Source: an uncultured Candidatus Saccharibacteria bacterium
GTDB lineage: Bacteria; Patescibacteriota; UBA1384; JACPKC01
NCBI GenBank assembly: GCA_964423885.1
Contig: CAYRGD010000002.1
Span: forward strand, 18,128-82,127
Direction: 5' to 3'
DNA: 64,000 nt
Shown in pieces: positions 5,173 through 54,958 of this stretch. The notes beneath the pieces were generated by a model. It made no database searches, had not been told where the DNA came from, and saw nothing but the letters and a program-made list of their open reading frames with translations. Both the position numbers and the translations under genes were made by a program. Each line of letters begins with the position of its first letter. The first letter of the stretch is position 1.

Positions 5173-6161
5173 AACACGAACCCGACGGCGTCTTTGACCT
5201 TGTGCATGGTCTGCTTGGCAAGCGGCTCGGCGTGGCGGGCGCCGGCACGCAGAAGTTCGGTCACGTGGTGTTCGTCGGCGCGGATGCCGGCGTAGCGCTC
5301 TTGGATCTGGGCAAGGAAGGCATTGATCGCCTCTGCTAGGTCAGACTTAAAATCGGCGTAGCCTTTGCCGATATAGCGGTTGGCAATCACTTCGGGCGTT
5401 CCGTCGGTTACGCCCGCGAAGATCGTCAGTAGGTTTTTGAGCGCGGGCTTGTCATCGGCGTACACGATCTCGGAGCCGGAATCAGTGACAGCTTTCTTGA
5501 CCTTGTTCCGGACCGTGTCGGCGTCGTCGGTCAGGGCGATGTAGTTGTACGCGCTCGCGGCCGACTTGCTCATTTTGACCGTTGGGTCGTCGAGCCCCAT
5601 GATCCGCGCGCCCTGCTCGGGGAGGAGTGCTTCGGGGATCGCAAAAACCTCGCCGAAGCGTTGGTTGAACCGCTTGGCCAGATCTCTCGCCAACTCCAGG
5701 TGCTGCACCTGGTCGTCGCCGATCGGTACCTTTTGGGCGTTGTAGAGCAGGATATCGGCGGCCATGAGCAGGGGATAGGCGAACAGCCCGACGCCCGACG
5801 CTCCCCGCTCGTCCCCTCTCCCCTTCTCTTTGAATTGGGTCATCCGTTCGAGTTCGCCCATGCTGGCGAGCGTGGTCAGGATCCACGCCAGCTCGGCATG
5901 CTCCGGCCGTTGGCTTTGCACGTACAGGATCGCCTGCTCGATATCCAAGCCTAACGCCAGGTAGAGCGCGGCCATATTCAAGGTGTGTTCTCGGAGCTTG
6001 GCGGGTTCCTGCGGTACGGTAATGGCGTGCAGGTCGACAATGAGGTAGACCGGCTGTTCGCTGCCTCCTTGGTTCTGCAACGCGAGCTGCTGCCGGATCG
6101 CGCCCAAGTAGTTGCCAATATGCACGATGCCGGAGGGTTGGATGCCGGAGAGGATACGCAT
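5169..6161 (-). CDS. trpS: tryptophan--tRNA ligase
   Basis: MRILSGIQPSGIVHIGNY (HIGH-type motif), KMSKS motif, class I aaRS of TrpRS length. Overlaps the stop of the upstream gene by 4 bp. Confidence 0.95.
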   Translation of the reverse strand: MRILSGIQPSGIVHIGNYLGAIRQQLALQNQGGSEQPVYLIVDLHAITVPQEPAKLREHTLNMAALYLALGLDIEQAILYVQSQRPEHAELAWILTTLASMGELERMTQFKEKGRGDERGASGVGLFAYPLLMAADILLYNAQKVPIGDDQVQHLELARDLAKRFNQRFGEVFAIPEALLPEQGARIMGLDDPTVKMSKSAASAYNYIALTDDADTVRNKVKKAVTDSGSEIVYADDKPALKNLLTIFAGVTDGTPEVIANRYIGKGYADFKSDLAEAINAFLAQIQERYAGIRADEHHVTELLRAGARHAEPLAKQTMHKVKDAVGFVF

Positions 6162-6202
6162 AGGGCTAGCCTAACAGAGCAGGCGTGCTACTATCAACAA
6201 CG

Positions 6203-7135
6203 ATGTTTTCGTCTGCCGAAGGGGCACTGCTGACGCCAGTGGTCTTTTTTGACCTCTTCGACAAGCCGCTCCGGCAAGCGGACCTGCCGGCGTTGGCCCA
6301 CGGCGTGGTGCTGGATCCGCCACTGGTCGAGACGTTGGTCGGTAACCTGGTGAGTCGGGGCGTTTTGGCACGTGCCGGCGAGTACCTGACCCTGCCCGGA
6401 CGCGAGGCGATCGCCGACGCATGGTTCGAGCGCGAGCTGACGCAGCGGTTACTCTGGGCCGAGGCCGAAGCGGTGGTGAGTTGCCTGGCCGCCGTCCCGT
6501 TCGTGCGGCTTGTCGCCGTGAGCAACTCGCTCGCGCTCGGTACCGCGACTGCCGAATCGGACATCGACCTAGTCGTGGTGGTGGAGCCGGGTGGGTTAGC
6601 CGTGGCCCGCGACCACCTGCTGGCCAGGCTCGAGGTGCTCGGCCGCCGGGCGCACCGGCTGCCTAAGCGGGGCAAGGCCTTTCCCGACGTGATGCTCACC
6701 ACGGAACGGCTCGAATTGGCGGCGTGGCAGTTGGAGCCGCTCGACATCTACCTGGATTACTGGCTCATGAGCTTGCAGCCGCTCATCGACCGTGGCAACG
6801 CGTACCGGCAGCTTGTCGCTGCCAACGGCTGGCTCGCCCAGACCTTTCCCGGCTGGCAGCCGCAGCAGAGCCGGTTGATTACGCCCGATCCCGTCCGCGA
6901 GGCGCACCGCAGCTCCTGGGAACGCTGGTACCGGTCGGCCCCGGGCCGGCTCATGGGTGCCGGGCAGACGCTGTGGTACGCCCAACGGATGCTCCGCTAC
7001 CAGGCAAAATTGCGTGAGCGCGCCACCGTCGTCGCCCAGGCCGACCTCCTGCGGATCCACGAGCCCGACAAGCGGCCGCAGTACCAACAGGCGTTCGCCG
7101 CCGCGTGGCAGCGGCTCGAGCGAATCGCGGCTTGA
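6203..7135 (+). CDS. winged-helix plus Pol-beta-type nucleotidyltransferase domain protein
   Basis: VAVSNSLALGTATAESDIDLVVV fits the minimal nucleotidyltransferase hG[GS]...DxD motif. The N-terminal ~70 aa look like a wHTH. The start could be 6185 (TTG) or the ATG at 6203; 6203 fits a TGcTACTAT -10-like element just upstream. Confidence 0.45.
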   Translation: MFSSAEGALLTPVVFFDLFDKPLRQADLPALAHGVVLDPPLVETLVGNLVSRGVLARAGEYLTLPGREAIADAWFERELTQRLLWAEAEAVVSCLAAVPFVRLVAVSNSLALGTATAESDIDLVVVVEPGGLAVARDHLLARLEVLGRRAHRLPKRGKAFPDVMLTTERLELAAWQLEPLDIYLDYWLMSLQPLIDRGNAYRQLVAANGWLAQTFPGWQPQQSRLITPDPVREAHRSSWERWYRSAPGRLMGAGQTLWYAQRMLRYQAKLRERATVVAQADLLRIHEPDKRPQYQQAFAAAWQRLERIAA

Positions 7136-7161
7136 CAAGCGGCCGTTTTACTCCATATAGT
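7132..7161 (+). promoter_or_regulatory. candidate sigma70-type promoter of groES-groEL (TTGACA-N18-TATAGT)
   Basis: Consensus TTGACA at 7132-7137 and TATAGT at 7156-7161 with an 18-nt spacer, ~100 nt upstream of groES. It overlaps the stop codon of the upstream gene. Confidence 0.45.
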
Positions 7162-7218
7162 CAAGCCATGGCGGGAGTAGCCAAGGTTTCCCCCTTACCT
7201 TCGGCTGTTCCGCCTCTT

Positions 7219-9230: not shown

Positions 9231-9269
9231 AAAGAGCCCCGGCACTCGCCGGGGCTCTTTTGGTTTGTT
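9231..9269. terminator. bidirectional rho-independent terminator between convergent groEL and the 9268-10527 gene
   Basis: Perfect 11-bp stem (AGAGCCCCGGC / GCCGGGGCTCT), 4-nt loop, followed by TTTTGGTTTGTT on the + strand and an A-run on the other side. Confidence 0.8.
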
Positions 9270-10527
9270 ACGGATTCGTTTTCTGTAGCAGCTGCCAGGT
9301 ACCGTCGTTCAATGTGTTCGGGTCGAAGTTGACGTTGTCCGATGTTATATATTCACCCTTCTGGTTGACCCAGTACTGGTTCCACCCGAGCGGCAGTTCC
9401 ACGAGCCCGCCGTTGACCGGGTCGTTGTAACTTTCGACGCCGCCCAGCGTTTGCCGGAACAGTTCGGCGTTGTGATCCTGCGACGCCGCGCGTTCGTTCA
9501 CCACCTGCTGCTGCAGGGCTTGGCTTTCGGCCCGGTACTGCTGCAACGCCTGGCCGAAGGCGACCGTGTCGTTCATCTGCTGGATGATGCCTTGGATAAA
9601 GAGCTTCTGCACCTGCCGGTAGGTGGCTTCCCATTCGACGGTCGTCGCCCGGCTGGCGATCACGGTCGAGGCGACGCCCTGCTGCTCGTCGAGTTCGCCT
9701 TTGGGTGCCCGGACCGATGTGGCGTAGTTGACGTACCAGGACGTGATGCCGTTGCTGCTCGAAAACAGCAGGGCGAACTGGACGTCTTCTTCCCATGGCG
9801 TGCCGTTCTGGTTGTACTCGTACCGCAATCGGTAGGCGTGCGCCTCGCCCGGGCCGCCGAAGAGGCGGATGAATTCGTTGGCGATCTCGGGAACGTCGGT
9901 GGTACGGACGAGCGTGGCACCTTGCAGGCGCGCAAGCGCGTTCGGCGCCCAAAACTCGGTGACGAACTGGGCGGGGTCGGTGATCGGCGGGACGTAGGCC
10001 TTACCCTGGTAGTTACCGCCTACTGGCGCACTGAAGCCGGCCGGTGCCTGAAACCACATGAAGTCCTGGATCGGCAGCCACTCGACCGTGGTACCGGTGG
10101 CGGGATCGGTTACTGTGGTATGGAGCTGCACCAGCCGTTCCCACTGGTGCATCCACTCGACGTTGCCCTGGCCCCGCCAGCCTTCCGGCGCTAGGAAGGA
10201 AAACGCGTCGACGTTACCCGCGGCCGGATCCTTGATCGTCTGCTTCAGGTACTTGACCGCCGGCCGCACGGCGGCCGCAGGAACGGATGGCTGTCCTGGC
10301 GACGACGGTTGTTGTGACGACGCCTGCTGCGCCGGCACGCGCGTGGCTTTGTAGTAGGCAGCGGCCCCGCCTACCACGGCCAGTACCAGGACTGCGGCAC
10401 CGATAATGACGCCGCGTCGACGTGGCCGAGCTAGCTGTGGCGGTTCGGGACTGGCAGGCGGTGCCGGCAGTACGACCGGCTGATCGACAGCCGGTTGGCT
10501 GACGATCGATTGTTCATTTTCGTTCAT
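9268..10527 (-). CDS. hypothetical membrane-anchored extracytoplasmic protein (N-terminal TM, proline-rich linker, C-terminal Gln-rich coiled-coil-like tail)
   Basis: The likely start is MNENEQSIV at 10527. The track ORF extends to 11010 but that part overlaps the convergent SdpI-like gene and has no coding character. It has one TM helix (VIIGAAVLVLAVVGGAAAYY). I do not recognise a conserved catalytic motif. Confidence 0.5.
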   Translation of the reverse strand: MNENEQSIVSQPAVDQPVVLPAPPASPEPPQLARPRRRGVIIGAAVLVLAVVGGAAAYYKATRVPAQQASSQQPSSPGQPSVPAAAVRPAVKYLKQTIKDPAAGNVDAFSFLAPEGWRGQGNVEWMHQWERLVQLHTTVTDPATGTTVEWLPIQDFMWFQAPAGFSAPVGGNYQGKAYVPPITDPAQFVTEFWAPNALARLQGATLVRTTDVPEIANEFIRLFGGPGEAHAYRLRYEYNQNGTPWEEDVQFALLFSSSNGITSWYVNYATSVRAPKGELDEQQGVASTVIASRATTVEWEATYRQVQKLFIQGIIQQMNDTVAFGQALQQYRAESQALQQQVVNERAASQDHNAELFRQTLGGVESYNDPVNGGLVELPLGWNQYWVNQKGEYITSDNVNFDPNTLNDGTWQLLQKTNP

Positions 10528-10591
10528 GCCTACAGCATAGCAAACTGGGTTGTCCCTAGTGTTTTTGCAGGAGTGGACGTACACTATTCCT

Positions 10592-11257
10592 ATGACAACA
10601 AAGACGGCGCACCTCATTTTCGCCTTGTTGGTACTCGCCTCGTTCGGATTGGCAGCCTGGGCGTACCCGCAGTTGCCGTCGGTCATCGCCAGCCACTGGA
10701 ACCTGGCGGGCCAGGTCGACGGGTATCTGCCCAAGGTCTGGGTGCTCGCGTTCGCGCCCGTTGCCACCGTGCTTATTTGGGGCCTGTGGGCGTTCATACC
10801 GCGGATCGATCCGCTGTCGGACAACCTCAGGCAGTTCGGGCGCGAGTACAATCTGCTTTTCCTTATGATCGCGCTCGTGCTGGTGGCGATCGACAAGGTG
10901 ACGCTCATCTGGAACCTTGGCCTACGGTTCCCGATGACGGGTGCCATCGTCGCCCTGCTCGGGCTGCTGTTCCTGGGCATCGGCACGCTACTGCCCCGCA
11001 TCCGGCGCAATTACTTCGTCGGGATCCGCACACCCTGGACGCTCGCGTCCGACGACGTATGGGCGTGGACGCATGCCCGTGCCGGCCGCTGGTTCTTGCT
11101 CGCTGGCTGCATCGCGATCCTGGCCGCGTTCCTGCCGCAGCCGTATGGGCCGTTGGTGGGCATCGCCGCGCCGGTGCTTGCCGCAGTCTGGTCAGTGGTC
11201 GACTCGTACCTTGGCTACCGCCGCGGACGGCACCTCGACAACCCCGGTCAAATCTGA
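10592..11257 (+). CDS. SdpI/YhfL-family membrane protein
   Basis: Multi-pass membrane protein with the conserved RNYFVGIRTPWTL motif of the SdpI/YhfL immunity-protein family. The start is MTTKTAHL; the track ORF begins 14 codons earlier. Confidence 0.6.
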   Translation: MTTKTAHLIFALLVLASFGLAAWAYPQLPSVIASHWNLAGQVDGYLPKVWVLAFAPVATVLIWGLWAFIPRIDPLSDNLRQFGREYNLLFLMIALVLVAIDKVTLIWNLGLRFPMTGAIVALLGLLFLGIGTLLPRIRRNYFVGIRTPWTLASDDVWAWTHARAGRWFLLAGCIAILAAFLPQPYGPLVGIAAPVLAAVWSVVDSYLGYRRGRHLDNPGQI

Positions 11258-16665: not shown

Positions 16666-16814
16666 CCCGCTCCTTTCGTGCGGAGGTACTATAGCACACT
16701 ATCTCTCGCGGTACCGCTGGTTTGCCGGTGGCCGGCTGTGGAAATACGGGAGTTTGACATTTCCCACGTCCGGAGTTTGTATAGACATACTATATAGAGG
16801 GAAAGGAGCGGGGC

Positions 16815-17675: not shown

Positions 17676-17735
17676 TACGCTCCTAGTAATGGAACGCGGT
17701 GCCACCGGGCGCCGCGTTTTTGGTACTGTACCCCT

Positions 17736-19235
17736 ATGAAGCTCCAGCTGACCAAGTCCGACTACATGATGTACCTCAAGCACCCGGCGTGGCTGTGGCT
17801 CAAAAAGCACGACAAGTCGAAGCTGCCCCCGGTCGACGACAACTTGCAGGCCGTATTCGACACCGGCCACAAGTTCGAGCCGTACGCCGAGGCACGGTTC
17901 CCCGGCGGCACCACGCTCGGGTTCAACGACTACGGCCAGTACCTGTCGTTGCCGAAGCGCACCCAGGCCGCGCTCGACGAGGGCGCCGCGACCCTGTTCC
18001 AGGGGCGGGTGGAGCACGGCCAGCTGACCTGCATCTTCGACGTGCTCGAACGTACGGAGGGCGGCTATAATCTGTACGAGATTAAGTCCGCTACCCGCGA
18101 AAAGCGCGAGCACCTGCTCGACCTGGCGTTCCAGAAGCACGTGCTCGAACTGGCCGGACTGCCGGTCAAGCGCTGTAGCGTCATCGTCGTCAACCCGCGC
18201 TACGTCCGCCGCGGCGACATCGAGGCGCGCAAGCTCACCCGTGTGATCGACGTGACCGCCGAGGTCGACGCGCTCGCCGAGCAGACCAAGACGGATATCG
18301 CCGCCGCGCTCGCGGTCATGGACTCTCCGACCCGACCGGACATCTCGCCCCGCTACGCCCAGGGCTATTACGTCAAAGATTGGATCGAGATCTTCCTGTC
18401 GCTGTCGGCTACGGATACCGACCCGTACAGCATATACCGGCTGTCGTCGCTCAAGGGTGATCTGCTCGGAGAACTCGAGGACCAGGGGATCCAAAAGATC
18501 AGCCAGATCCCGCCGGATTTCCCGCTGCAGCACGCCAAGTACCAGCGGGTGGTCGAGCTGTCGCGCCTGGGTGCGCCGGTCATCGACGCGGCCAAGGTGG
18601 CGGATTTTCTACGCACCTTTACGTTCCCGCTCTACTTCTTCGACTACGAAACCATGAGCAGCATCATCCCGCCGTTCGACGGCACGCGCCCGTTCCAGCA
18701 GCTGCCCACCCAGTACTCGCTCCACATCCTGCCCGCGCCCGGCGCCGAGCTCGTCCACAAGGAATTCCTCCACCGCGATTCGAGCGACCCGTGCCTGCCA
18801 TTGCTCAAGCAGCTAGTGGAGGATATCGGGACGGAAGGGACCGTGCTCGCGTGGTACGACAAGTTCGAAAAGGGCGTCAACGAATCGCTCGGCGAGCTCC
18901 ACCCCGACTACAAAGACCGAATGACGGCCCTGAACGACCGCATCCTCGACCTGATGACCCCGTTCTCGCAGGGTTGGTACGAGGACTACCGGTTTTTGGG
19001 CAGCGCCAGTATCAAGAAGGTGCTGCCAGTACTGGTGCCCGACCTGACCTATAAAACGCTTACCGTACAGAACGGCGAAGCCGCCCAGCGTCTTTGGATG
19101 GAAACCGTGCTCGAGGGCAAGAATCCCGACGGCAAGGAGCAGCTGTTCAAAGATCTCTTGGAATACTGTGGCCTGGACACCTACGCGATGGTGCGGATTT
19201 ACCAAGCCCTACTTGAGCGGAGTGCAGGGGCGTAG
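17736..19235 (+). CDS. DUF2779-domain protein
   Basis: The N-terminus MKLQLTKSDYMMYLKHPAWLWL matches the DUF2779 signature (S[KR].Y..G.QC.K.LWL-like). ~500 aa is typical for this family. Preceded by a TGGTACTGT-N6-ATG leaderless-type promoter. Confidence 0.55.
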   Translation: MKLQLTKSDYMMYLKHPAWLWLKKHDKSKLPPVDDNLQAVFDTGHKFEPYAEARFPGGTTLGFNDYGQYLSLPKRTQAALDEGAATLFQGRVEHGQLTCIFDVLERTEGGYNLYEIKSATREKREHLLDLAFQKHVLELAGLPVKRCSVIVVNPRYVRRGDIEARKLTRVIDVTAEVDALAEQTKTDIAAALAVMDSPTRPDISPRYAQGYYVKDWIEIFLSLSATDTDPYSIYRLSSLKGDLLGELEDQGIQKISQIPPDFPLQHAKYQRVVELSRLGAPVIDAAKVADFLRTFTFPLYFFDYETMSSIIPPFDGTRPFQQLPTQYSLHILPAPGAELVHKEFLHRDSSDPCLPLLKQLVEDIGTEGTVLAWYDKFEKGVNESLGELHPDYKDRMTALNDRILDLMTPFSQGWYEDYRFLGSASIKKVLPVLVPDLTYKTLTVQNGEAAQRLWMETVLEGKNPDGKEQLFKDLLEYCGLDTYAMVRIYQALLERSAGA

Positions 19236-19258
19236 CCGAAAAGTGATATATTCAAGGC

Positions 19259-19624
19259 ATGGCTTCTGAATTGCAGGAACTAACACGGCGGATCACCGCG
19301 TTCCGTGACGCGCGGGACTGGAAACAGTTCCACAACCCCAAAGACCTAGCGTTATCGTTAGTGCTAGAAGCCGCCGAGGTGATGGAGCACTTCCAGTGGA
19401 AGTCACCGGACGAAATCGCAGACTACGTACAATCAAACAAAGAGGATATTGCCGAGGAGCTGGCTGACACGCTCTACTGGACGCTGCTGCTCGCACACGA
19501 TCTGGATATCGACCTGGCCGACGCTTTTTCGCGCAAGATGGCGAAGAACGATGCAAAGTATCCTGCCGATCAAGCCAAGGGGCGGCACGATAAATATACG
19601 GCGTACCGTCGATCCAAGATTTGA
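19259..19624 (+). CDS. MazG-like all-alpha nucleotide pyrophosphohydrolase
   Basis: 121 aa. EExxE and ELADxLYW motifs of the MazG/NTP-PPase fold (LEAAEVMEHFQW...EELADTLYWTLLLAHDLDIDL). Intermediate GC (~54%). Its stop overlaps the RBS/start region of mod. Confidence 0.7.
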   Translation: MASELQELTRRITAFRDARDWKQFHNPKDLALSLVLEAAEVMEHFQWKSPDEIADYVQSNKEDIAEELADTLYWTLLLAHDLDIDLADAFSRKMAKNDAKYPADQAKGRHDKYTAYRRSKI

Positions 19625-24952: not shown

Positions 24953-25030
24953 ATCTTGCACATAATAATTGGAGATCTAGTAGAAGGATCCTCTGGATAA
25001 AGTTGTTCCTTTCTTTTACACTTCGCCCTC

Positions 25031-25999
25031 ATGCACTACGGATTCTGGGAGAAGCTCCCGCGGCCATTTTTCGTGCTTGCGCCGATGGCGAACGTAACCG
25101 ATACGGTCTTTCGCCAGATTATCGTGGCGCATAGTCGGCCGGACGTGCTCTTTACCGAATTCGTGTCGTGCGACGGGCTCATGTCGCGCGGGTATGACGC
25201 GCTCATCCGCGACTTGTCGTACGCGCCGGTGGAGCGCCCGATCGTGGCCCAGGTCTTCGGGGCGACGCCCAAGAATTTTTACGGTACCGGCAAGCTCGTG
25301 GCCGAGCTGGGGTTCGACGGCTTGGATATCAACATGGGGTGCCCGGACAAGGCGGTGGTAAAGCAGGGTGCGGGTGCGGGGCTGATCAAAACGCCGTCGC
25401 TGGCGCTCGAACTCATCGCTGCGGCGCGCGAAGGGACGAAGGCGGGCGGACGCGAGCTGCCAATTTCGGTCAAAACCCGCCTAGGCGGCAGTGTCGACGA
25501 GGCTGACCGCTGGATCCCGCAGTTGTTGTCGGCCACGATCCCGGCGCTCACCGTGCACTGTCGGACGCGCAAGGAAATGTCGAAGGTACCCGCGCACTGG
25601 GAGCGGATGAAGGACATCGTGGCGATGGCGGCTGGTATCGGCACAATCATTGTCGGCAACGGCGACGTGCTGTCGGTGGCCGACGGCCGCGCGAAAGCCG
25701 AGGCGAGCGGTGTCGACGGGCTCATGCTCGGGCGGGCAATCTTCGGCAACCCGTGGCTGTTCCGCGACGGCTACGCGCCGAGCGTCCGCGAACGGCTTAC
25801 CGTGATGGTCGAGCACACGCGGCTCTTTGCCAGCACCTGGGGCGACACCAAAAACTTTGAAACCATGAAGAAGCACTACAAGGCGTATGCCAATGGCTTT
25901 CCCGGCGCGCACGAACTGCGGGCCGAGCTGATGACGCTCCACGACGCCGAGGCTGTTGCCACGACGGTCGAGCGGTTCCTTGCGGGCGTAGCGGCCTAG
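25031..25999 (+). CDS. dus: tRNA-dihydrouridine synthase
   Basis: FVLAPMANVTDTVFRQ, GLDINMGCP, and an FMN-binding TIM-barrel pattern typical of the DusB family. Confidence 0.9.
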   Translation: MHYGFWEKLPRPFFVLAPMANVTDTVFRQIIVAHSRPDVLFTEFVSCDGLMSRGYDALIRDLSYAPVERPIVAQVFGATPKNFYGTGKLVAELGFDGLDINMGCPDKAVVKQGAGAGLIKTPSLALELIAAAREGTKAGGRELPISVKTRLGGSVDEADRWIPQLLSATIPALTVHCRTRKEMSKVPAHWERMKDIVAMAAGIGTIIVGNGDVLSVADGRAKAEASGVDGLMLGRAIFGNPWLFRDGYAPSVRERLTVMVEHTRLFASTWGDTKNFETMKKHYKAYANGFPGAHELRAELMTLHDAEAVATTVERFLAGVAA

Positions 26000-30576: not shown

Positions 30577-30881
30577 CGCGCTACCGTCCGGTCGGCGCCG
30601 ATCCGCCAACCCTCGGCCGTCAACAAGGCGATCTTGGCGTCGGTACCGCCGTTGAAGCCGCCCAGGCGTCGGCTGGCCGCGACCACCCGGTGGCACGGCA
30701 CTGCGTCGGGATCGCCGGCAGCGGTCACAAAGGACTTGGGATTACCGCGCATGATCGCGCCGACTGCCCGGGCCGCCTTGGGGTTGCCGGCAGCAGCCGC
30801 CACCTCACCGTAGGTCATCACCTGGCCGCTCGGGATCGAACGGACCACGGCGTACACCTGTTCCTTAAACGCACTGTTCAT
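30573..30881 (-). CDS. ogt: methylated-DNA--protein-cysteine methyltransferase (DNA-binding/active-site domain only)
   Basis: ~100 aa with MTYGEVAAAAG...PCHRVV (PCHR active-site cysteine motif) and a helix-turn-helix. GGAGG RBS. ATGA overlaps at both ends. Confidence 0.8.
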   Translation of the reverse strand: MNSAFKEQVYAVVRSIPSGQVMTYGEVAAAAGNPKAARAVGAIMRGNPKSFVTAAGDPDAVPCHRVVAASRRLGGFNGGTDAKIALLTAEGWRIGADRTVAR

Positions 30882-31387
30882 GCTGCCTCCGGGACTGCGG
30901 CCGCGGCCGCTTTCGGTTCGGTTGATTTGAGTACCACGATCCGCTTGGGCGTTACTTTGACGATCTCGTCGCGGCTGATCACCCGTTCGGGCCCGAACAG
31001 CTTGTTGACGTGGAGCTTGGCGACCCGTTCCAAGTCGGTATCCACGACTACGTCGGCCACGGTGCCGAGCACGTCGCCGTCCTCGCTTTCCACCTTCTTG
31101 CCCTGCCACCGGTCGCGCTGCGCGTATACCGCTTTGAACGGTTGGACGTCGTCAGGAGACACGAGCACGTCGGCGGTGCGGATCACGATCCCGCGCTCTT
31201 CATACCCCACCACGTCGCGCGCCGATAGCGCCCGCCGCGCCGCGAACCAGCCGGCAGGTTTCACCCAAAAGCCCACGACCTCGCCGGTACGTGGGTGGAT
31301 GAGTGTCCCGTCAATCATCCCGACGGCGGATTCGGTATCCAACGTCGCTACGGGAATGCCCTGTAAGTGGCTGGCTTCGATGAGCAT
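30878..31387 (-). CDS. PRC-barrel domain protein (two PRC-like repeats), first gene of the operon
   Basis: Two ~75-aa repeats with the G.V.D...D..G.V.G.V pattern of PRC barrels. Preceded by TGGTAGCAT-N6-ATG (leaderless-type promoter). Confidence 0.65.
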   Translation of the reverse strand: MLIEASHLQGIPVATLDTESAVGMIDGTLIHPRTGEVVGFWVKPAGWFAARRALSARDVVGYEERGIVIRTADVLVSPDDVQPFKAVYAQRDRWQGKKVESEDGDVLGTVADVVVDTDLERVAKLHVNKLFGPERVISRDEIVKVTPKRIVVLKSTEPKAAAAAVPEAA

Positions 31388-31470
31388 GTATCCATGCTAC
31401 CACCACCGGCCCGCTCGACATACTCCGGCAGGTGCTGCGATACTGGAGCCAACCAAGGAGGTACCGCTTC

Positions 31471-37209: not shown

Positions 37210-38313
37210 TTACACGTTGAACTTGAACTCGATCACGTCGCCGTCGCGGACGACGTACTCCTTGCCTTCTTGGCGGAGCTTGCCGGCGGTGCGGGCGCCG
37301 GCCTCGCCGTTGCCAGCCACGTAGTCGCTGAACCCGATCACCTCGGCCTTGATGAAGCCGCGCTCGAAGTCGGTGTGGATGACGCCGGCCGCTTGGGGCG
37401 CACTCGCCTGGCGGGGGATCGTCCAGGCACGGACTTCTTTGACGCCGGCGGTGAAGTACGTGTGCAGGCCGAGTAGGGCGAAGGCCTCGCGGATCAGGCG
37501 GTTGAGTCCCGGTTCAGTCAGACCCAGCTCCCCCAAAAATTCGGTTTGCTCGGCAGGGGAGAGCTCGGCGACTTCCTGCTCGATCTTGGCCGAAATCGGG
37601 ACGATCGTGGCGGTCGCGAGGTCGGGCCGGCCGGCACGCAGCGCGTCGACCCGCTCCCCTCCCCTGGCGGCGGCCGACTCGTCGACATTCAAGACAAACA
37701 TGAGCGGCTTGGCGGTTAGGAGCTGCAGGCCATGGAGGAGCGGGCGTTCGGCGTCGGCAAGGGGAAGCGAGCGCACTCCCCTGCCTTGGTCGAGTTCGGC
37801 CTTGAGGCGGGCGAGCAGGTCGCGGAGCAGCACGGCGTCCTTGTTCCCCGCTTTCACTTGGCCGTCGATCCCCTGGAGCCGTTTGTCGACCGTTGCCAAA
37901 TCCGCCAATGCCAGCTCGGTTTCGATCGTCTCGATGTCGCTTAGAGGATCGACCGCGCCGGCCACGTGGGTGACGTTCGGGTCGGTAAAGTCGCGCACGA
38001 CCATGGCGCTCGCGTCGACCTCGCGGATGTGGGCCAGGAACTTGTTGCCCAGGGCGTCGCCCTTGGAGGCGCCGCGCACCAGGCCGGCGATGTCGACGAA
38101 GGTGACGGTCGCGGGGACTACCCGTTCCGGGTGGATGATCGCTGCCAGCTGATCGAGCCGCGGATCAGGCAGGTCGACGATCCCGATATTGGGTTCGATC
38201 GTGGTGAACGGGAAGTTCGACGCCTGCGCGCTCATTTTTTTGACGAGCGCGTTGAAGAGCGTCGATTTCCCGACGTTCGGCAGGCCGACGATACCGATTT
38301 TGAGCGATGACAT
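37210..38313 (-). CDS. ychF: ribosome-binding ATPase YchF (Obg-family GTPase)
   Basis: MSSLKIGIVGLPNVGKSTLFNAL, DIAGLV, and the C-terminal TGS domain. TGATACACT-N6-ATG upstream. Confidence 0.95.
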   Translation of the reverse strand: MSSLKIGIVGLPNVGKSTLFNALVKKMSAQASNFPFTTIEPNIGIVDLPDPRLDQLAAIIHPERVVPATVTFVDIAGLVRGASKGDALGNKFLAHIREVDASAMVVRDFTDPNVTHVAGAVDPLSDIETIETELALADLATVDKRLQGIDGQVKAGNKDAVLLRDLLARLKAELDQGRGVRSLPLADAERPLLHGLQLLTAKPLMFVLNVDESAAARGGERVDALRAGRPDLATATIVPISAKIEQEVAELSPAEQTEFLGELGLTEPGLNRLIREAFALLGLHTYFTAGVKEVRAWTIPRQASAPQAAGVIHTDFERGFIKAEVIGFSDYVAGNGEAGARTAGKLRQEGKEYVVRDGDVIEFKFNV

Positions 38314-38325
38314 GGCGGGAGTGTA

Positions 38326-39186
38326 TCAGGTTTGCTGCCACCGGGCGACGAGGCCGGTCGAGAGGAGGCGGCCCGAACCGGATTCCTGGAGCGCCAGCTC
38401 GCCGGCGTCGACCGTGCCGCCGAGTTGCAAGTCGCCAAGCATGTTTTCGAGCATGATCGCCGAGGCCGAGATCGCGTAGGCGTTCACGAGCAGGCAGCGC
38501 GGCCGGTCGGTCAGGATTCGGGCGCAGGCGTCTAACAGTTCCGGGAACTGCTTGGCGAAGTCCCACGGCTCGCCATTGGGGCCGTGGCCGATGACCGGCG
38601 GATCCATAAGAATGGCGTCGTACCGGCCGCCGCGCCGTTCCTCGCGTGCCACGAATTTCAGGGCGTCGTCGAGGATCCAGCGGATCGGCTTGTCAGCTAA
38701 GCCCGAGGCGGCTTGGTTGTCTCGGGCCCAACCGACCGTGGGCCGCGAAGCGTCGACGTGTGTGACTGAGGCGCCGGCCTTGGCGGCCACGAGCGAGGCG
38801 CCGCCGGTGTAGCCGAACAGGTTGAGCACCTTGGTATCGGCCGTCGCGCCGGCGAGTTGTTTAGTGAGCCACTGCCAGTTGGACCGTTGTTCGGGAAAGA
38901 TGCCGGTGTGCTTGAACGGCGTCAGTTTGGCGGCAAGGACGATGCCGTCGCTTGCGAGTGGCCAGGATTCGGGCACGGCCGTGCGCCGTTCCCACTGCCC
39001 GCGCCGGCCGTCGTCGACGAAGGTAGCGTCGGCACTATTCCAGGCATCGACGGGCCGGTGCGGCTGCCAGAGGGCCTGCGGGTCCGGCCGGTCGAGCACG
39101 AAGCGGCCGAACCGCTCTAACCGCCGGCCGAGGCCGGAGTCCAAGAGTTCGTAGTCGTCCCAGGAGTTTGCCACGATTGTCCGCAT
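38326..39186 (-). CDS. class I SAM-dependent rRNA methyltransferase (RlmI/YwbD-like)
   Basis: VLNLFGYTGGASLVAA (motif I) and AILMDPP (motif IV) in the order seen in RlmI-type 23S rRNA m5C methyltransferases. The exact target specificity cannot be told from sequence. Confidence 0.65.
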   Translation of the reverse strand: MRTIVANSWDDYELLDSGLGRRLERFGRFVLDRPDPQALWQPHRPVDAWNSADATFVDDGRRGQWERRTAVPESWPLASDGIVLAAKLTPFKHTGIFPEQRSNWQWLTKQLAGATADTKVLNLFGYTGGASLVAAKAGASVTHVDASRPTVGWARDNQAASGLADKPIRWILDDALKFVAREERRGGRYDAILMDPPVIGHGPNGEPWDFAKQFPELLDACARILTDRPRCLLVNAYAISASAIMLENMLGDLQLGGTVDAGELALQESGSGRLLSTGLVARWQQT

Positions 39187-39321
39187 ACCCCGTACTGTAC
39201 CAGGTTGTCCACATAGCTGACAGGAGTGTTACTGCCTGTTCGCCGGTTGCATATTCAGGCGGTATACCCTATAAGTAGTCGCGCAATTAATAATCATAAA
39301 CAAAGGAAGGAGGTGGCGCGC

Positions 39322-39762
39322 GTGACCGCGATGCCGGATTTGGAGTTCGTCGTTACGAACCGTGCATTCGTCGAATTGGCGGCGACGCAGGGATTCGAGA
39401 TCGACGCGGTGAAAGCGGAGCTCGCACGGGATATCGAGCGCGAGCTCGGCAAGCTGGTTGAGACCGACGCGGCCTTGATCGCCCACCACCGGCGGCATAT
39501 CACGCACCGCGTGGTAGCCGACTGGTTGGCCCACTTCTTCGACTACCGCAGCGCTGAAGAATGGCTGCGGACGTTGCCGGAGTGGACCGCGCGGGTCCGA
39601 CAAGCACTGACGGGCATATCGGCCCGAAACACACCCTGCCCGTGGAGGGTTCAAGCGAACGGAATCCTCTATTACTTCGACGGCGACAAATTGACGCATG
39701 TCGCCAAACTAAAACCGAAACCGAAGCCCAAGGCAAAACGCCGACGGGTATCTGATCACTAA
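39322..39762 (+). CDS. hypothetical protein with basic PKPKPKAKRRR C-terminal tail
   Basis: GGAGGTGG RBS then GTG (alternative ATG 9 nt downstream). No recognisable domain. The track ORF extends upstream without coding character. Confidence 0.4.
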   Translation: MTAMPDLEFVVTNRAFVELAATQGFEIDAVKAELARDIERELGKLVETDAALIAHHRRHITHRVVADWLAHFFDYRSAEEWLRTLPEWTARVRQALTGISARNTPCPWRVQANGILYYFDGDKLTHVAKLKPKPKPKAKRRRVSDH

Positions 39763-41201: not shown

Positions 41202-41257
41202 TCCCCTCCTTCGTGCCGTTCGGACGTACGTATCGCATCGTATCATGCCGGCCCGGC

Positions 41258-41292
41258 CAAGAAAAAAGGGACCCCATGCGGGGTCCGTCTGC
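41258..41292 (-). terminator. candidate rho-independent terminator (minus strand) downstream of the Xer recombinase gene
   Basis: GGGACCCC-ATGC-GGGGTCC hairpin followed on the minus strand by a TTTTTT run. Confidence 0.45.
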
Positions 41293-41577
41293 TAGTCGGG
41301 AATGTTCATTCCCTTTCGTTTTCGTTTCGCGTTTGGCTGCGCGCCGGTGTCCGGCGCCACGCCGAAACGGCTATGGTCGTTGTCGGTCGTCAGGCGTTTC
41401 GCCGTTTCTTTCTTTCGTATCCGGCGGCACGACAAGCTCTCGCCTTCAAGAAGATCGGCCTGCGACGGTTGGCCGTCGGCGACCGGGGCAGGATCGGATT
41501 CGTCCACGAGGATCCGCCTCCGCGTTGCATGATTTGCGGGGCTACCGCAGCAACCGACATAGGATAGCCCTCCTGCG

Positions 41578-42462
41578 CTACTTCTTCAAGCGGCCGTGGA
41601 ACGCCTTGTGGACTTCTTTTAAGTGCGTGTCGGTGAGATGGGTGTAGCGCTGGGTGGTTACCACCGACGAGTGTCCGAGCAGGGATTGGACGGCGCGCAG
41701 ATCGGCGCCGGAGCGTAAAAGGTCGGTCGCGAACGAGTGGCGGAGCGTGTGCGGCGTGACGTGGTCGGCGATGCCGGCCGCTGCCGCGTAGTACTTGATG
41801 ATGCGTTGGACGCTTCGGACAGTCAGGCGATTGTCCCCTTCCCTGTCCGCTCGCTCGCGGATGAACAGCGCCGGATCCTGGTCGGCGCGACGGCGCAGGT
41901 AGGCTGTGATGGCGGCTTGGGCGGATGCCGATAGGAACACCACGCGCCGTTTCTTGCCCTTGCCGAGCACGCTCACCTCTTCCCTGCCTTCGACGTCGGT
42001 CCGGTCGAGCCGCGTCAGCTCGGCTACCCGCAGGCCGGTGGAAAAGAGCGTTTCCAGCAAGGCGCGGTCGCGGATGCCGGCCGGGGTGCCGGGGTCCGGC
42101 GCGGCCAGCAGGCGTTCGAGCGCGTCGGCATGCAGGACGCTCACCTCGGGCTCGTCGACGCCGGGAAGGTCGACCGTGTCCGACGCCAGGCTCGGGATAT
42201 TGCGCCGGGCCAGCCAGGCCAGGAACGCGCGGAGCGCGACTAAGTGGTAGTTCTGCGTCGCCTTACCGAGCGCTTCGTTCCGGTTCAAGTCGAGCCGCCA
42301 GCGGCGGACGAGCTCGCCGTCGATCCGTTCGACCGGCGTGCTGCCCGCGAAGAGCGCGAACCGTTCCAAGTAGTGCCGGTAGTTGGCGATTGTCCGTTCG
42401 GACAGCCCTTGGGCGAGCTCGCAGTCTTCCAGAAACCGTCGGACGGCGTCGGCAAGTTCCAT
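41578..42462 (-). CDS. tyrosine site-specific recombinase, XerC/XerD family
   Basis: N-terminal SAM-like core-binding domain and C-terminal catalytic R...HxxR...Y pattern (HTLRHSFATDLL...LLGHSSVVTTQRYTHL). Start at MELADAV, directly preceded by an extended -10 element. Confidence 0.88.
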   Translation of the reverse strand: MELADAVRRFLEDCELAQGLSERTIANYRHYLERFALFAGSTPVERIDGELVRRWRLDLNRNEALGKATQNYHLVALRAFLAWLARRNIPSLASDTVDLPGVDEPEVSVLHADALERLLAAPDPGTPAGIRDRALLETLFSTGLRVAELTRLDRTDVEGREEVSVLGKGKKRRVVFLSASAQAAITAYLRRRADQDPALFIRERADREGDNRLTVRSVQRIIKYYAAAAGIADHVTPHTLRHSFATDLLRSGADLRAVQSLLGHSSVVTTQRYTHLTDTHLKEVHKAFHGRLKK

Positions 42463-42511
42463 GCCGCCAGTATACCAGGCGCGCCGGCTGCTCCTTTGGT
42501 ATGATGCCCGC
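42463..42511. promoter_or_regulatory. back-to-back divergent leaderless promoters (TGGTATACT-N6-ATG for the Xer gene; TGGTATGAT-N6-ATG for the PAP2 gene)
   Basis: Each start codon lies exactly 6 nt downstream of an extended -10 (TGnTAnnnT) with no Shine-Dalgarno sequence. The whole intergenic region is 49 bp. Confidence 0.5.
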
Positions 42512-43102
42512 ATGGAATCCCTGCTTGCCCTCGATACGCGCGTCAGCCTGTGGTTCCAAGCGGCAGCGCCAACGCTGCCCGAGCTCTGGAAGCTGCTCGC
42601 GATTTTCGGCGTCTACGCGGTGCCGGCGGCGTTGCTCTGGTCGTGGTTTCGCGGCGACAAGCTCACCGCCTTCCGGGCGGGTCTCACCGGTATCGCCGCC
42701 TGGTTCCTCTTGAACGGCCTCATTAGCCGGCTGTTGCCGCGCGACCGGCCGCCGCAACTGCCGTTCCTCAACTTTCCTGCGCATGAGTTCCTGTTCGACC
42801 GGCCCGGGCCGTCATTCCCGTCCGACCACGCGGCATTCATGACCACGGTTACGCTGGTGTTCGCGTTGGCCGGCCAGCACCGGATCGCTACGTTCCTTGC
42901 CTGGGTGACGGCGGCCACGTTGCTCGCGCGGGTCGTGACCGCCCAGCACTGGGCGGGGGATATCGCCGCTGGCGTCGCTGTCGGCGCCGTCGCGGCCTGG
43001 CTGTCGAACCTCGCACGCCCGGCCGTCGACCGGTACGTAGGGCAGCCGCTCGTAGCCGTCTGGCGTCGCCTGACTGGATCCGATGTTCGGCCTGACGCTT
43101 GA
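42512..43102 (+). CDS. PAP2-superfamily phosphatase (undecaprenyl-diphosphatase-like)
   Basis: Membrane protein with PSFPSDH and ...HW.GD motifs (PAP2 KxxxxxxRP / PSGH / SRxxxxxHxxxD pattern, partly divergent). Confidence 0.7.
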   Translation: MESLLALDTRVSLWFQAAAPTLPELWKLLAIFGVYAVPAALLWSWFRGDKLTAFRAGLTGIAAWFLLNGLISRLLPRDRPPQLPFLNFPAHEFLFDRPGPSFPSDHAAFMTTVTLVFALAGQHRIATFLAWVTAATLLARVVTAQHWAGDIAAGVAVGAVAAWLSNLARPAVDRYVGQPLVAVWRRLTGSDVRPDA

Positions 43103-47839: not shown

Positions 47840-48354
47840 CGTACGACGTGAACGCCGACTACTTTTCCGGCTTGCGCGACGGTGAAACGATCCGCGCTGT
47901 GTGGCGCCGGAACCCGTGGACGATGATCAAGCCGTGGGCGGCCTCACTCGCGCTGACGCTCATCGTGTTCGCGGTGTTCGTCGCGTTCGGTGCGAGCCTG
48001 CCGACCTCGGTCGCGATCGGGCTGTGGCTCGTGATCGTGCCGAGCTTGCTCGGTTATGCGTGGTACGTTTGGCATCAGAACACGTACGTGCTCACGAGTG
48101 AGCGGCTCATTGATATCAACCAGCCGCACCCGTTGCGCCGCGCCGTCGCCGAAATCCCGATGGAGATCGTCCAGGACGTGACATACGAAGTCAGCGGCCC
48201 GATAGGGCTCGCGCTCAACTTCGGTTCGGTGATCGTGCAGACGGCGTCGTACACCGAGGTGACGATGACGATGATGACCGATCCGCAGGTCGTCCAACAA
48301 GCAGTGCTTACGGCCGCCAAGCAGTTCCGGAAAGAGAATACCGTTACGCCGTAA
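47836..48354 (+). CDS. membrane protein with bacterial PH-like (YdbS/bPH_2-type) domain
   Basis: Two TM helices followed by YVLTSERLIDINQ..., matching the bPH_2 Y.[IL]T..R[IL] pattern. Confidence 0.5.
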   Translation: MTYDVNADYFSGLRDGETIRAVWRRNPWTMIKPWAASLALTLIVFAVFVAFGASLPTSVAIGLWLVIVPSLLGYAWYVWHQNTYVLTSERLIDINQPHPLRRAVAEIPMEIVQDVTYEVSGPIGLALNFGSVIVQTASYTEVTMTMMTDPQVVQQAVLTAAKQFRKENTVTP

Positions 48355-49162
48355 GCCGGACGGTGTCTCCTGCCGAGGTCGTGAAGCCTTCCTGCTCCAG
48401 CGCGTGCAGTAAACCGTAGAACCGTTCGCGCGGTACGTCGATCTTGCTCGCGATCCGGTCGAAGAGGTCGTCGTTCGTTGTGGGCGCAACACGGAGCGCG
48501 TCGAGGATCCGGCCGCGCAGATAGCGGTTCGAGCCGACGAACCGTTCGGTTTCCTTCTTCTTGCTCGGTCTTGGACGTTTCGAGCGCAGCTCGGCCGAGG
48601 CGTAATCCATCATCGCGTGCAACCAGACGTGCGGCATACCTCTCGGCATCACGGCCGAAGCCAGCTCGTAGTACGCGTTTTCGTTCCGTGGGTTCTTCGT
48701 CGGCAGCATGACGTCGAGAAACAGGCGGACGTTCGTGTCGACGGCCGGCGTATCGATGCCGAACGCGAAGTTCATGACCGCGCCGGCAGTGTAGCGGCCC
48801 ACGCCGGGGAGCGCGCGAAGCCCGTCGACCGTGCTGGGAAATTGACCGTTTAGATCGGTGACGACCATTCGAATCGCCCGCTGCAGGTTGAGCGCGCGGC
48901 GGTTGTATCCTAGACCTTTCCACTCGCGGATCACGTCGGCCGGGCTCGCGTCCGCCAGCGACCGCATGGTCGGAAACCGCTCGAAAAACGCCAGGTATTT
49001 CGGGATCACGCGCGGCACCTGCGTCTGCTGGAGCATGATCTCGCTCACCAAAATCTTGTACGGGTCGTGCGTCTGCCGCCACGGCAAGTCTCGCCGGTTC
49101 GCTTCGTACCAGTCGAGCACGGTGCGCTGGATCTCGGCGATACGTTGTTTGCTCAGTCTCAT
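48344..49162 (-). CDS. HhH-GPD superfamily DNA glycosylase (EndoIII/MutY-like) without Fe-S cluster cysteines, with C-terminal winged-helix-like extension
   Basis: ILVSEIMLQQT, LPGVGRYTAGAVMNFAFG (helix-hairpin-helix GxG) and VDTNV (catalytic Asp). No C-x6-C-x2-C-x5-C motif. A ~90-aa C-terminal extension. Confidence 0.7.
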   Translation of the reverse strand: MRLSKQRIAEIQRTVLDWYEANRRDLPWRQTHDPYKILVSEIMLQQTQVPRVIPKYLAFFERFPTMRSLADASPADVIREWKGLGYNRRALNLQRAIRMVVTDLNGQFPSTVDGLRALPGVGRYTAGAVMNFAFGIDTPAVDTNVRLFLDVMLPTKNPRNENAYYELASAVMPRGMPHVWLHAMMDYASAELRSKRPRPSKKKETERFVGSNRYLRGRILDALRVAPTTNDDLFDRIASKIDVPRERFYGLLHALEQEGFTTSAGDTVRLTA

Positions 49163-49213
49163 CTTCGAAGCCTACCAAAGAAAAAGGCCCCGAAGGGCCT
49201 GGCTGTCGTAGTG

Positions 49214-53400: not shown

Positions 53401-53818
53401 TGTTCAAGCAGCCGGTCAGGATCGTGACGCCCTCGGCATGGTGCTTCATGAGGTCTTTGTCGACGCGTGGCCGGTAGTAGAAGCCCTCGAGGTGCGAGAC
53501 CGATACCATCTTGACCAGGTTCTTATAGCCGGCAAGGTTCCGGGCCAGCATGGTCAGGTGGTAGGGCTTGGCGTCGAACCGCGCCTCGCGGTCGTGGAGC
53601 GTCCGGCGGGCGACGTAGCCTTCCACGCCGATAATCGGCTTGATTTCGGCCGCCTTCGCCTTCTGATAGAATTCGATCGCTCCGTACATGACGCCGTGGT
53701 CGGTGAGCGCCATCGCCGGCATCCCGAACTCCTTGGCGCGCGCGACCAGGCCGTCGATCTTCGACAGGCCGTCGAGGAGCGAGTAGTGGCTATGGGTATG
53801 CAGATGAACGAAACTCAT
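50348..53818 (-). CDS. dnaE: DNA polymerase III subunit alpha
   Basis: PHP domain N-terminus (SFVHLHTHSHYSLLDG), polymerase core, OB domain. 1156 aa. Confidence 0.97.
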   Translation of the reverse strand: MSFVHLHTHSHYSLLDGLSKIDGLVARAKEFGMPAMALTDHGVMYGAIEFYQKAKAAEIKPIIGVEGYVARRTLHDREARFDAKPYHLTMLARNLAGYKNLVKMVSVSHLEGFYYRPRVDKDLMKHHAEGVTILTGCLNSELSRDILDNRLDDAKALIKYYLDTFGREFVYLEVQHHPALKDQGIVNQALEQFSKEFNVPLIATGDSHYLSHDDQEAHEVLLAVATGKDVDDADRMTLKDVDLSLSTPDEMLTRFAGYEGAVENTLRVAESVDLEFELGKNILPKFPLPTGKADAQTHFEELSWAGYRNRYGEGTPEADERLKFELDVIKNMGFADYFLIVSDFVQWSKNNGVVVGPGRGSAAGSIVAYCLGITDLDPLKYDLLFERFLNPDRISMPDIDIDFADNRRDEVLRYVQEKYGEERVGQIITFGTMAARGSIRDVARSLGMSFADGDRIAKLIPPKPGTTLKESLEVAELKQIYDTEPEMKRLIDMAMKLEGVARHASTHACGVIVADQALTEYLPLTVNQKGPMTALTQFGMKDCETIGLLKMDFLGLSNLTVIKNALRIIKKRHDVDIDISALPLDDKAAYALLSRAETTGVFQLESDGMKRYLKELKPSEFEDIIAMCALYRPGPMEFIPDFIARKHGRKAINYIHPSAESVLKPTYGIMVYQEQMMQLSRILAGFTRGEADTLRKGVAKKVKKILDKIEPQFVEGCAKVGSITEHQAREVWQEWLAWAKYGFNKSHAACYALVAYQTAYLKAHYPAEFMAALMTSDIHNLDRISIEISEAEKMGLTVLPPSVKESYSEFGVAGDGKQIRFGLAAIKNIGEAVAEKIVDERKNGPYTSLEDFCTRLGGSVINRKVLESLAMCGALDELAERQQLLDNADLILKFIQGYDKAKNSQQASLFGGMEQAAPQHHLQLVAGAPASKQQRLAWEKELLSVYVSEHPLGDYKDKLANLDPIRALDQAKPEAKVAIGGIITQLKTITTKNGEAMAFGKLEDMTGAIEVVVFPKTLKENPALWVPDAVLIVKGKVNDRDNERKIIVDHAASLADTTVRSRSTQLKEAPKPVAAAPVNTDGVKMLHLLIDSTVDRAILHAVKDELSKSAGDIPVTCILQGPEPKSLATNLKISLTNNLVFDLNQRLGQERVLLVR

Positions 53819-54958
53819 GATTCCCCTCTCCTGGCCGTCGTCTTGGGCCGTTCCGAACAGCTCTCAACGTATGAGCTGCGAGCGGTCTTGGGCCGGCTCG
53901 GCTGCCATATTCGTGACCTTACCGTAACAAGCGGCGTCGCCCTCGTCAAAGCCGACCCTGCTCCTGATACCGGGTGGTTCCGGCAGCTGGGCGGCGCGGT
54001 CAAGGCGGGACGGGTGGAGGCGGATTCCCTTCCTGATCGTGCGTCGGTCGGCGACGCGCTTGCAGCCCTTGTCGACCAGCCGGTGGTCGGTATTTCCAGT
54101 GTCGCCAGCGGTATTGCCGCCGGGCCGTTGGCGGCCGCGCTCAAGTCGGCCCATGACGCGGTCAAACGCTATGCGGTGCCGGCGGACGGACCGTTCCTGT
54201 CGGCCGCGCAATCCAAAGGGATCCGGGATGCTGGCGGCTCCGAATGGCTGGTGCTCGGCGCTGCCGGTGCGTATTCGCTGGTACGGATCACGGACGTGCA
54301 AGATATCGACGATTACACCCGACGCGACCGCCAGCTGCCCGCCGTCGACATGAAGCGCGGCGTGTTACCCACCAAGCTGGCGCGGATGATGGCCAATATC
54401 GCCCTAGGGGAACAGCCGCTCGCGCCCGGCGCGGTCCTGCTCGATCCGTTCTGCGGTACCGGCAGGATCCTCTTGGAAGGCAGGCTGCTCGGCAATCCTA
54501 TCCTTGGTTCGGATATCGACCCCGCCGCCGTAGACGCGACCCGGCGGAACCTAGTTTGGGCGGCCGGTACCTACGGCATGACTGCTCCTGATCCCGATTC
54601 GATCCTCACCGCGCCCATCGACAAGCTTGCCGGTCTCCTGTCGCCGCAGAGTATCGCGGCGATCGCGACTGAGCCGTTCCTCGGTCCGCCGGCTACCAGG
54701 GCGTTGACGCCGCCTGAGCGCGACGCGCTGTTCGACCGGCTGTTGCCGCAGTACGAGGCGTTGCTCCGTTCGGCCAAGGCCTTGCTGGTTCCCGGCGGGC
54801 GGTTAGCGGCCGTGTTTCCGCTCGTGGACGGCCAGTCGCTCTTCGCCAGGTTCGTTGACAGGCTACCCCGCTTCGGCTACCATCTCCTCGATTCAATACC
54901 GGTTACCCGATCCGACCAGTGGATCGCACGAGATATCGTCCTGCTCCGAGCGGAGTAG
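53806..54958 (+). CDS. class I SAM-dependent RNA methyltransferase (THUMP/Trm11-RlmL-like)
   Basis: LLDPFCGTGRILLEG (motif I, as in COG0116/COG1041 methyltransferases) and ARMMANIA. The N-terminus (LLAVVLGRSEQLSTYEL) resembles the start of these proteins. The start codon is uncertain, and the chosen ATG overlaps the dnaE start on the opposite strand by ~13 bp. Confidence 0.6.

Follow-up and report, generated by a model that had tools for sequence, protein, structure and literature searches.

The 64,000-nt stretch analyzed here (hereafter the window; ~64% GC), from contig CAYRGD010000002.1 of an uncultured Candidatus Saccharibacteria bacterium, carries ~64 genes, among which xer, encoding a tyrosine recombinase, and a PAP2 phosphatase gene stand back to back and are transcribed divergently. 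Each of their start codons is preceded, at a distance of exactly six nucleotides (N6; other spacers are denoted likewise), by the motif TGnTAnnnT (TGNTANNNT), which has the form of an extended -10 promoter element. The first-pass annotation of this DNA had listed seven such strict sites (at xer, the PAP2 gene, trpS, the PRC-barrel gene, the DUF2779 gene, the MazG-like gene, and ychF) and had read them as promoters of leaderless mRNAs. All seven lie exactly where that annotation had placed them, and the looser N8 versions it had described ahead of 6203 and 25031 are also present, the box at 25031 lacking the TG. Our scan additionally revealed sites that had been overlooked, namely two strict ones (10525-10542 and 49160-49177, both on the minus strand), an N7 site (39184-39202, minus strand), and a TG-less N6 site ahead of the plus-strand ATG at 10592. 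The last of these creates a third back-to-back pair (10527 minus/10592 plus) next to the two already reported (trpS/310-aa gene and xer/PAP2), both of which were recovered. The coordinates of all sites are collected in table 1.

Coupling of Extended -10 Boxes to Start Codons

Expected counts were obtained from dinucleotide shuffles of the window (n = 100). The combination of the motif, N6, and ATG was found nine times, against 0.32 expected and a maximum of two in any single shuffle (Poisson estimate, P ~5e-10). When matches were sorted by the distance between motif and ATG, spacings N0 to N15 gave 0, 0, 1, 0, 0, 0, 9, 1, 2, 0, 0, 1, 1, 0, 0, and 1 cases, with ~0.4 expected for each, whereas a window scan for GTG or TTG downstream of the motif returned none at N6 and no prominent spacing. 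The motif alone was not enriched (33 matches vs. 32.9 in the shuffles) which, in combination with the excess at N6, locates the signal in a strict coupling of the extended -10 box to ATG. The N6-ATG pattern is thus confirmed as real and well above chance. Out-of-sample sequence was provided by Logan SRR12712864 contigs carrying the proteins encoded at the edges of the window, which added ~5 kb and no new site and were uninformative in this respect.

For a closer view of the element, 13 sites (the nine strict ones, one N7, two N8, and one TG-less N6) were aligned on the -10 box. Three positions of the hexamer (T, A, and T) were invariant, and the extension was nearly so: 12 of the 13 sites have T at -15 and 11 have G at -14, where base composition would lead to TG in ~6%. 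No conserved column was observed upstream of -16, that is, no -35 consensus, and a two-hexamer -35/-10 scan of the window outside 24-44 kb found classical promoters unenriched and did not pick up any of the sites. Eight of the nine strict sites have C or T at -1, which is the usual preference of RNA polymerase for a pyrimidine at -1 and a purine at +1. The starts were also said to have no Shine-Dalgarno (SD) site, and indeed the 6-nt spacers hold no GGAGG-type core at a functional distance. The three divergent pairs are compact, with 41 bp (trpS/310-aa gene), 49 bp (xer/PAP2), and 64 bp (419-aa/SdpI-like) between their ATGs; in each pair the two boxes occupy most of the intergenic space, and these gaps hold nothing else that looks like a promoter. 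The same box was also found farther out at an SD-led gene, where TGCTATAGT (16688-16696, minus strand) is followed by AAAGGAG and then by the ATG at 16665. Such a box at promoter distance ahead of SD-led genes argues for a promoter element acting at the DNA level rather than for a ribosome site.

The genomic setting of the sites is variable. The PRC-barrel gene heads an operon of PRC-barrel, MGMT-like, ABC ATPase, FtsX, and DUF5665 genes whose internal joins are ATGA overlaps, and the TGA within the ychF box is at the same time the stop codon of the methyltransferase gene upstream. At 17700-17738 and 49160-49200 a terminator is fused to the promoter, the last T of the T-tract being the T of the TGG extension, and terminator, promoter, and ATG make up a unit of ~50 nt at both 17736 and 49162.

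Table 1. Boxes of the -10 type and the start codons that they adjoin in the window
Gene (coordinates)	Site	Strand	Box, spacer, and start codon	Remarks
xer, tyrosine recombinase (41578-42462)	42460..42477	-	TGGTATACT (42469-42477)-GGCGGC-ATG 42462-42460	
PAP2 phosphatase gene (42512-43102)	42497..42514	+	TGGTATGAT (42497-42505)-GCCCGC-ATG 42512	
trpS (5169-6161)	6159..6176	-	TGTTAGGCT-N6-ATG	
310-aa gene (6203-7135)	6186..6205	+	TGCTACTAT-N8-ATG	predicted leader 0-2 nt
419-aa hypothetical gene (9268-10527)	10525..10542	-	TGCTATGCT-N6-ATG	
SdpI/DUF1648 membrane protein gene (10592-11257)	10577..10594	+	ACGTACACT-N6-ATG	without TG
DUF2779 gene (17736-19235)	17721..17738	+	TGGTACTGT-N6-ATG	
MazG-like gene (19259-19624)	19244..19261	+	TGATATATT-N6-ATG	inside 23-nt gap after DUF2779 gene
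dus (25031-25999)	25014..25033	+	TTTTACACT-N8-ATG	loose, without TG
PRC-barrel gene (30878-31387)	31385..31402	-	TGGTAGCAT-N6-ATG	
ychF (37210-38313)	38311..38328	-	TGATACACT-N6-ATG	
SAM-dependent methyltransferase gene (38326-39186)	39184..39202	-	TGGTACAGT-N7-ATG	
HhH-GPD glycosylase gene (48344-49162)	49160..49177	-	TGGTAGGCT-N6-ATG	immediately past terminator hairpin 49200-49185

Gene Starts and Their Conservation in Relatives

Genes were mapped from codon usage and the GC content of third codon positions (GC3), and their products were searched for domains against Pfam. On these grounds all nine strict ATGs open coding-looking open reading frames (ORFs), and in eight of them a Pfam domain begins at most a few residues away from the ATG; the ninth, the 419-aa hypothetical gene (9268-10527), had no Pfam match, its evidence being coding potential. 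The ATG adjoining the box is the first start codon of the ORF in six of the nine cases, the exceptions being 10527, 42462, and 42512. For xer, the choice of 42462 over 42513 made in the first-pass annotation held, as the ATG falls at aligned residue 1 in 66 of 80 homologue loci; moreover, the SAM-like Pfam domain begins at residue 8 of the short form, corresponding to residue 25 of the long one, and the long form would traverse both promoters and overlap the PAP2 ATG. Likewise, a 580-aa alternative to the 419-aa ORF would run into the SdpI/DUF1648 gene on the opposite strand, which has Pfam support, and the PAP2 N-terminus is of the same length as that of its orthologue in the related locus L004. 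Setting 6203 aside, these comparisons support the ATG after the box as the probable true translation start.

The gene names assigned earlier were borne out by Pfam, except for the "nucleotidyltransferase" at 6203; this 310-aa protein gave just a sub-threshold match to NTP_transf_2 (E = 0.0016), and no homologue of it was found in any of the retrieved loci. A further candidate, the minus-strand ORF 39229-39699 with TAGTTT-N6-ATG, was rejected as a gene, being arginine-rich and without a Pfam match; the plus-strand ORF 39313-39762 looks like the real gene at this locus.

The closest YchF relatives (91, 83, and 78% identity in loci L001-L003) come from Patescibacteria/Saccharibacteria metagenome-assembled genomes (MAGs), and their loci are syntenic with 28-42 kb of the window. 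In all three, the orthologues of ychF, the methyltransferase gene, and the PRC-barrel gene carry TGnTAnnnT-N6/7-ATG, the methyltransferase orthologues exhibiting N6 spacing where the window has N7. Upstream alignments with these relatives retained as invariant columns only TG, T, A, T, and ATG, amid diverged surroundings. The PRC-barrel orthologue also occurs in L004 (46% GC, Xer 60% identity), which in addition retains the divergent xer/PAP2 pair in the form TGCTAAATT-N6-ATG and TGCTAGGAT-N8-ATG. Altogether, the relatives with the box at orthologous genes span 46-63% GC.

More distant evidence was drawn from metagenomic xer homologues (~50% identity, 36-54% GC), for which 65 distinct upstream regions were considered and the ATG counted was the one aligned with residue 1; TANNNT stands exactly 6 nt before it in 21 of the 65. 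The other genes on the same contigs gave 21 cases at N6 and 14 at N7, most spacings yielding 0-5, except N1 (11) and N9 (8). As for the control loci, those from alphaproteobacteria (142 kb, 67% GC) contained no N6 case and those from Melainabacteria and SAR86 no peak, while Vicinamibacteria loci had a broader excess of TGNTANNNT before ATG, extending over N6-N10. Taken as a whole, the box adjoining ATG is a trait common to the lineage of the window plus a set of relatives.

Two side observations concern the genes compared. In four loci from unrelated, high-GC genomes of Vicinamibacteria/Acidobacteriota (L058, L059, L062, and L065), TATAAT likewise precedes the ychF ATG by 6-9 nt; the YchF protein is reported to regulate leaderless-mRNA translation, according to work cited in PMC12641178. 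Upstream of xer, in turn, a recurring word, ATGTCGCACAAT or TTTGCGACA (also as the reverse complement, ATTGTGCGACAT), was noted among the loci L081-L160 (e.g., L081, L086, L095, L116, and L127); it lies 10-35 nt before the xer ATG and adjoins or overlaps the -10 box in many metagenomic homologues. It may represent an operator or a dif-like site next to the recombinase gene, and positions 42463-42511 of the window lack it.

Initiation Modes and Competing Explanations

The box adjoins the ATG in 13 of the window genes (~20%), and a count from the gene map assigns ~8 of the 18 genes starting at divergent junctions to this type. The claim that such boxes mark the first genes of operons therefore stood only in part: many sites do head transcription units, but only about half of the unit heads are of the box type. 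Furthermore, ychF and the MazG-like gene, despite their N6 sites, are not operon starts, since they begin 12 and 23 nt, respectively, after a same-strand gene, and their boxes are internal promoters. The unit heads led by an SD site comprise groES, pyrG, glmM-like, eno, ndk, dnaE, two C39-like genes, an RTX gene, and an SBBP gene, with leaders that may be short or long; rpmA-rplS and the rpsF-ssb-rpsR-efp cluster are SD-led too, efp itself being without a flagged SD site. Sites of the GGAGG/AAGGAG type were observed at groESL, rpsR, ssb, rpmA, pyrG, eno, ndk, and dnaE, and the window contains seven ATGA stop-start overlaps. The GGAGG sites and ATGA overlaps previously described for operon-internal genes were recovered, these genes having either GGAGG/AAGGAGG sites or ATGA overlaps. 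With box-adjacent genes standing beside SD-led genes in the same window, the sequences point to the dual initiation regime that had been suggested.

The groES promoter (TTGACA-18-TATAGT) precedes a leader of ~95 nt. This groESL promoter (7132-7170) is the sole near-consensus two-hexamer promoter, and the CIRCE operator is absent from the groESL leader. The leader would itself begin with AUG, as ATG 7168 lies at N6 from the -10 box; its frame overlaps that of groES in a different phase and appears to be non-coding, and this ATG was rejected as opening no credible gene. At 53804-53843, the SD-led dnaE (ATG 53818, minus strand) faces a divergent methyltransferase-like gene on the plus strand with candidate starts at ATG 53804 or TTG 53843, neither with an SD site or -10 box, and the 5' ends of the two genes overlap or nearly abut.

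We consider it highly probable that the boxes are -35-less extended -10 promoters of the sigma-70 type, yielding leaderless mRNAs beside SD-led genes. According to this model, RNA polymerase would melt the DNA at A(-11) and T(-7) and would start transcription seven bases past the box, at the A that opens the ATG. The resulting mRNA would begin with AUG, without a 5' untranslated region (5' UTR) or SD site, and would be translated by the leaderless route, its 5'-terminal AUG being bound by 70S or 30S ribosomes. Highly expressed genes (groESL, ribosomal proteins, eno, and ndk) and operon-internal ones are served by SD sites or ATGA overlaps. Leaderless initiation depends on a 5'-terminal AUG, and the restriction of the pattern to ATG fits this dependence. 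The N6 spacing, the pyrimidine at -1, and the A at +1 together give a geometry that favors a transcription start on the first base of the start codon, and from this geometry we infer both where transcription starts and how the mRNA is translated.

Several points weigh against this interpretation. The placement of the 5' end comes solely from promoter geometry, and the N7 and N8 spacers may leave a leader of 1-2 nt. Read-through transcripts that include the internal ATGs of ychF and the MazG-like gene, and lack an SD site there, probably exist as well, given the same-strand gene 12 and 23 nt ahead and no terminator between. The start at 6203, preferred to 6185 in the first-pass annotation, is consistent with the model and goes no further. 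Finally, low-GC Saccharibacteria ychF loci (L017, L029, L044, and L055; 55 kb) exhibit no clear N6 peak, for which reason the trait is not claimed for the whole phylum.

A first alternative places the signal in the RNA, the box being an A/U-containing non-SD contact for the ribosome or S1 within a longer 5' UTR and not a promoter. Non-SD upstream signals do occur in other phyla, for example in Bacteroidetes (group B in PMC6028130), and same-strand transcription from upstream is likely at ychF and the MazG-like gene. Nevertheless, the motif coincides exactly with the extended -10 consensus of sigma-70, TG and the three invariant positions included, and its spacing matches the optimal distance from a -10 box to the start site. 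The strong GGAGG sites in the same genome imply that the anti-SD is in use, each divergent pair has 41-64 bp in all between its ATGs, where nothing else resembles a promoter, and the same box recurs upstream of SD-led genes at promoter distance. Taken together, these features render an RNA-level signal very improbable.

An explanation that we judge about equally improbable accepts the boxes as promoters and moves the true start codons elsewhere, either downstream behind a leader or upstream under the control of other promoters, the ATG at N6 then being incidental or one among several starts. Three of the nine strict ATGs are preceded by another start codon within their ORF and would agree with it, as would the groES promoter, which also puts an ATG (7168) at N6 without a credible gene. 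It is hard to reconcile, however, with an excess confined to ATG at exactly N6, with Pfam domains beginning 1-12 residues into most of the proposed proteins, with the start of Xer homologues at aligned residue 1 (66 of 80 loci), and with a PAP2 N-terminus equal in length to that of the L004 orthologue; in addition, xer and the 419-aa gene would, in their long forms, run into neighbor genes or both promoters. Lastly, a chance or compositional artifact of a high-GC genome with AT-rich words clustering between genes, which the unenriched motif per se and the known concentration of AT-rich words in the intergenic DNA of GC-rich genomes could have suggested, is effectively refuted by the nine sites against 0.3-0.4 expected with the spacings just below N6 empty, by the zero at N6 in the alphaproteobacterial loci of even higher GC (67%, 142 kb), and by the presence of the pattern before the orthologous genes of relatives with 46-63% GC.

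Known Leaderless Systems and Other Features of the Window

Viewed as leaderless promoters, the boxes have close counterparts in other phyla. In the classification of GeneMarkS-2, group C is defined by a Pribnow box 6-8 nt from the first-gene start with a ribosome-binding site (RBS) elsewhere, and takes in 90% of actinobacterial and 97% of Deinococcus-Thermus genomes (PMC6028130). According to the MetaGeneMark-2 preprint, promoter spacers in bacteria average 6 nt. Experimental mapping in Mycobacterium tuberculosis revealed a TANNNT box with no -35 consensus and C/T at -1, leaderless transcripts for 7 of 14 tRNA synthetase genes and for zero ribosomal-protein genes, and divergent promoters that are often closely juxtaposed (PMC3898074). 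The window has in common with group C and M. tuberculosis the TANNNT box 6-8 nt before the first-gene start, the lack of a -35, and high GC. It further shares with them the pyrimidine at -1 and purine at +1, SD sites for internal and leadered genes, a predicted leaderless tRNA synthetase gene beside SD-type ribosomal-protein genes, and juxtaposed divergent promoters. The differences lie in the TGn extension (11 of 13 boxes in the window vs. 7% of the M. tuberculosis TANNNT promoters; PMC3898074), in the start codon (ATG only in the window, GTG as well in mycobacteria), and in the lineage, as the group C type is represented by Actinobacteria and was mapped experimentally, whereas the Patescibacteria system is known here from sequence.

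The Deinococcus system, in which the -10-adjacent leaderless architecture was validated with reporters and RNA-seq (PMC12340547), is similar in that a bare TANNNT a few base pairs before the ORF suffices as a promoter, in its specific spacing to the start codon, in its coexistence with genes having a classical promoter and RBS, and in the comparable share of ORFs (~30% vs. ~20% in the window). It belongs to another phylum and has reporter and RNA-seq support, in contrast to a system read from DNA, and the TGn extension is apparently not described there, the main text of that paper being without the word "extended." The extended -10 promoters of E. coli and Gram-positive bacteria share the TG at -15/-14, which offsets a missing -35 (Mitchell et al. 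2003, as cited in PMC12641261); in those organisms they normally stand ahead of a 5' UTR with an SD site, whereas the boxes of the window are fixed 6 nt from ATG. The arrangement in the window is hence the classic leaderless architecture of a -10 box adjacent to the ORF, distinct in its near-obligatory TGn and in its lineage.

Full-text literature searches retrieved no description of leaderless genes in Saccharibacteria, Patescibacteria, or the candidate phyla radiation (CPR). That -35-less, TGn-extended leaderless expression with bidirectional regions of 41-64 bp is lineage-wide and quantitatively major in a Patescibacteria/Saccharibacteria-related CPR branch (~40-64% GC) strikes us as an even chance, and the trait may be tied to two properties of the CPR, namely reduced ribosomes and compact genomes. 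The understanding of leaderless expression as such is unchanged, its mechanism being textbook knowledge in other phyla; what would be extended is the known range of -10-adjacent leaderless expression, which comprises Actinobacteria and Deinococcus-Thermus and would now include a Patescibacteria lineage of high GC together with its relatives from metagenomes. A regulatory region of 41-64 bp could serve two genes by means of a back-to-back pair of extended -10 boxes, with no further element. For annotation, the box rule would fix start codons such as that of xer (42462 over 42513) and that of the 419-aa ORF over its 580-aa alternative, and gene callers tuned to SD sites would mis-start about one-fifth of the genes in such MAGs.

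Other features of the window were recorded along with the sites. Scans of the window for tRNAs and Rfam families returned no match. In the PRC-barrel operon, the small MGMT/Ogt-like gene (30573-30881, minus strand) encodes a PCHRV motif and has ATGA overlaps with the PRC-barrel gene upstream and the ABC ATPase gene downstream, the true start of the latter being ATG 30576 and not GTG 30696. The region 19636-24952 forms a 42%-GC island with a Type III-like restriction-modification system (an N6_N4 DNA methylase and a ResIII helicase with an RE_endonuc domain), in which a gene with a weak HEPN (RiboL-PSP) match lies between Mod and Res; the island was probably horizontally acquired. Between xer and a C39-like peptidase gene, 376 nt (41202-41577) hold no convincing ORF and no Rfam match, and a strong hairpin resembling a terminator (GGACCCCGCATGGGGTCC, with a T-run after it) lies at the end of this stretch, just upstream of 41246. 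The gap matching it in L003 is only ~100 nt long.

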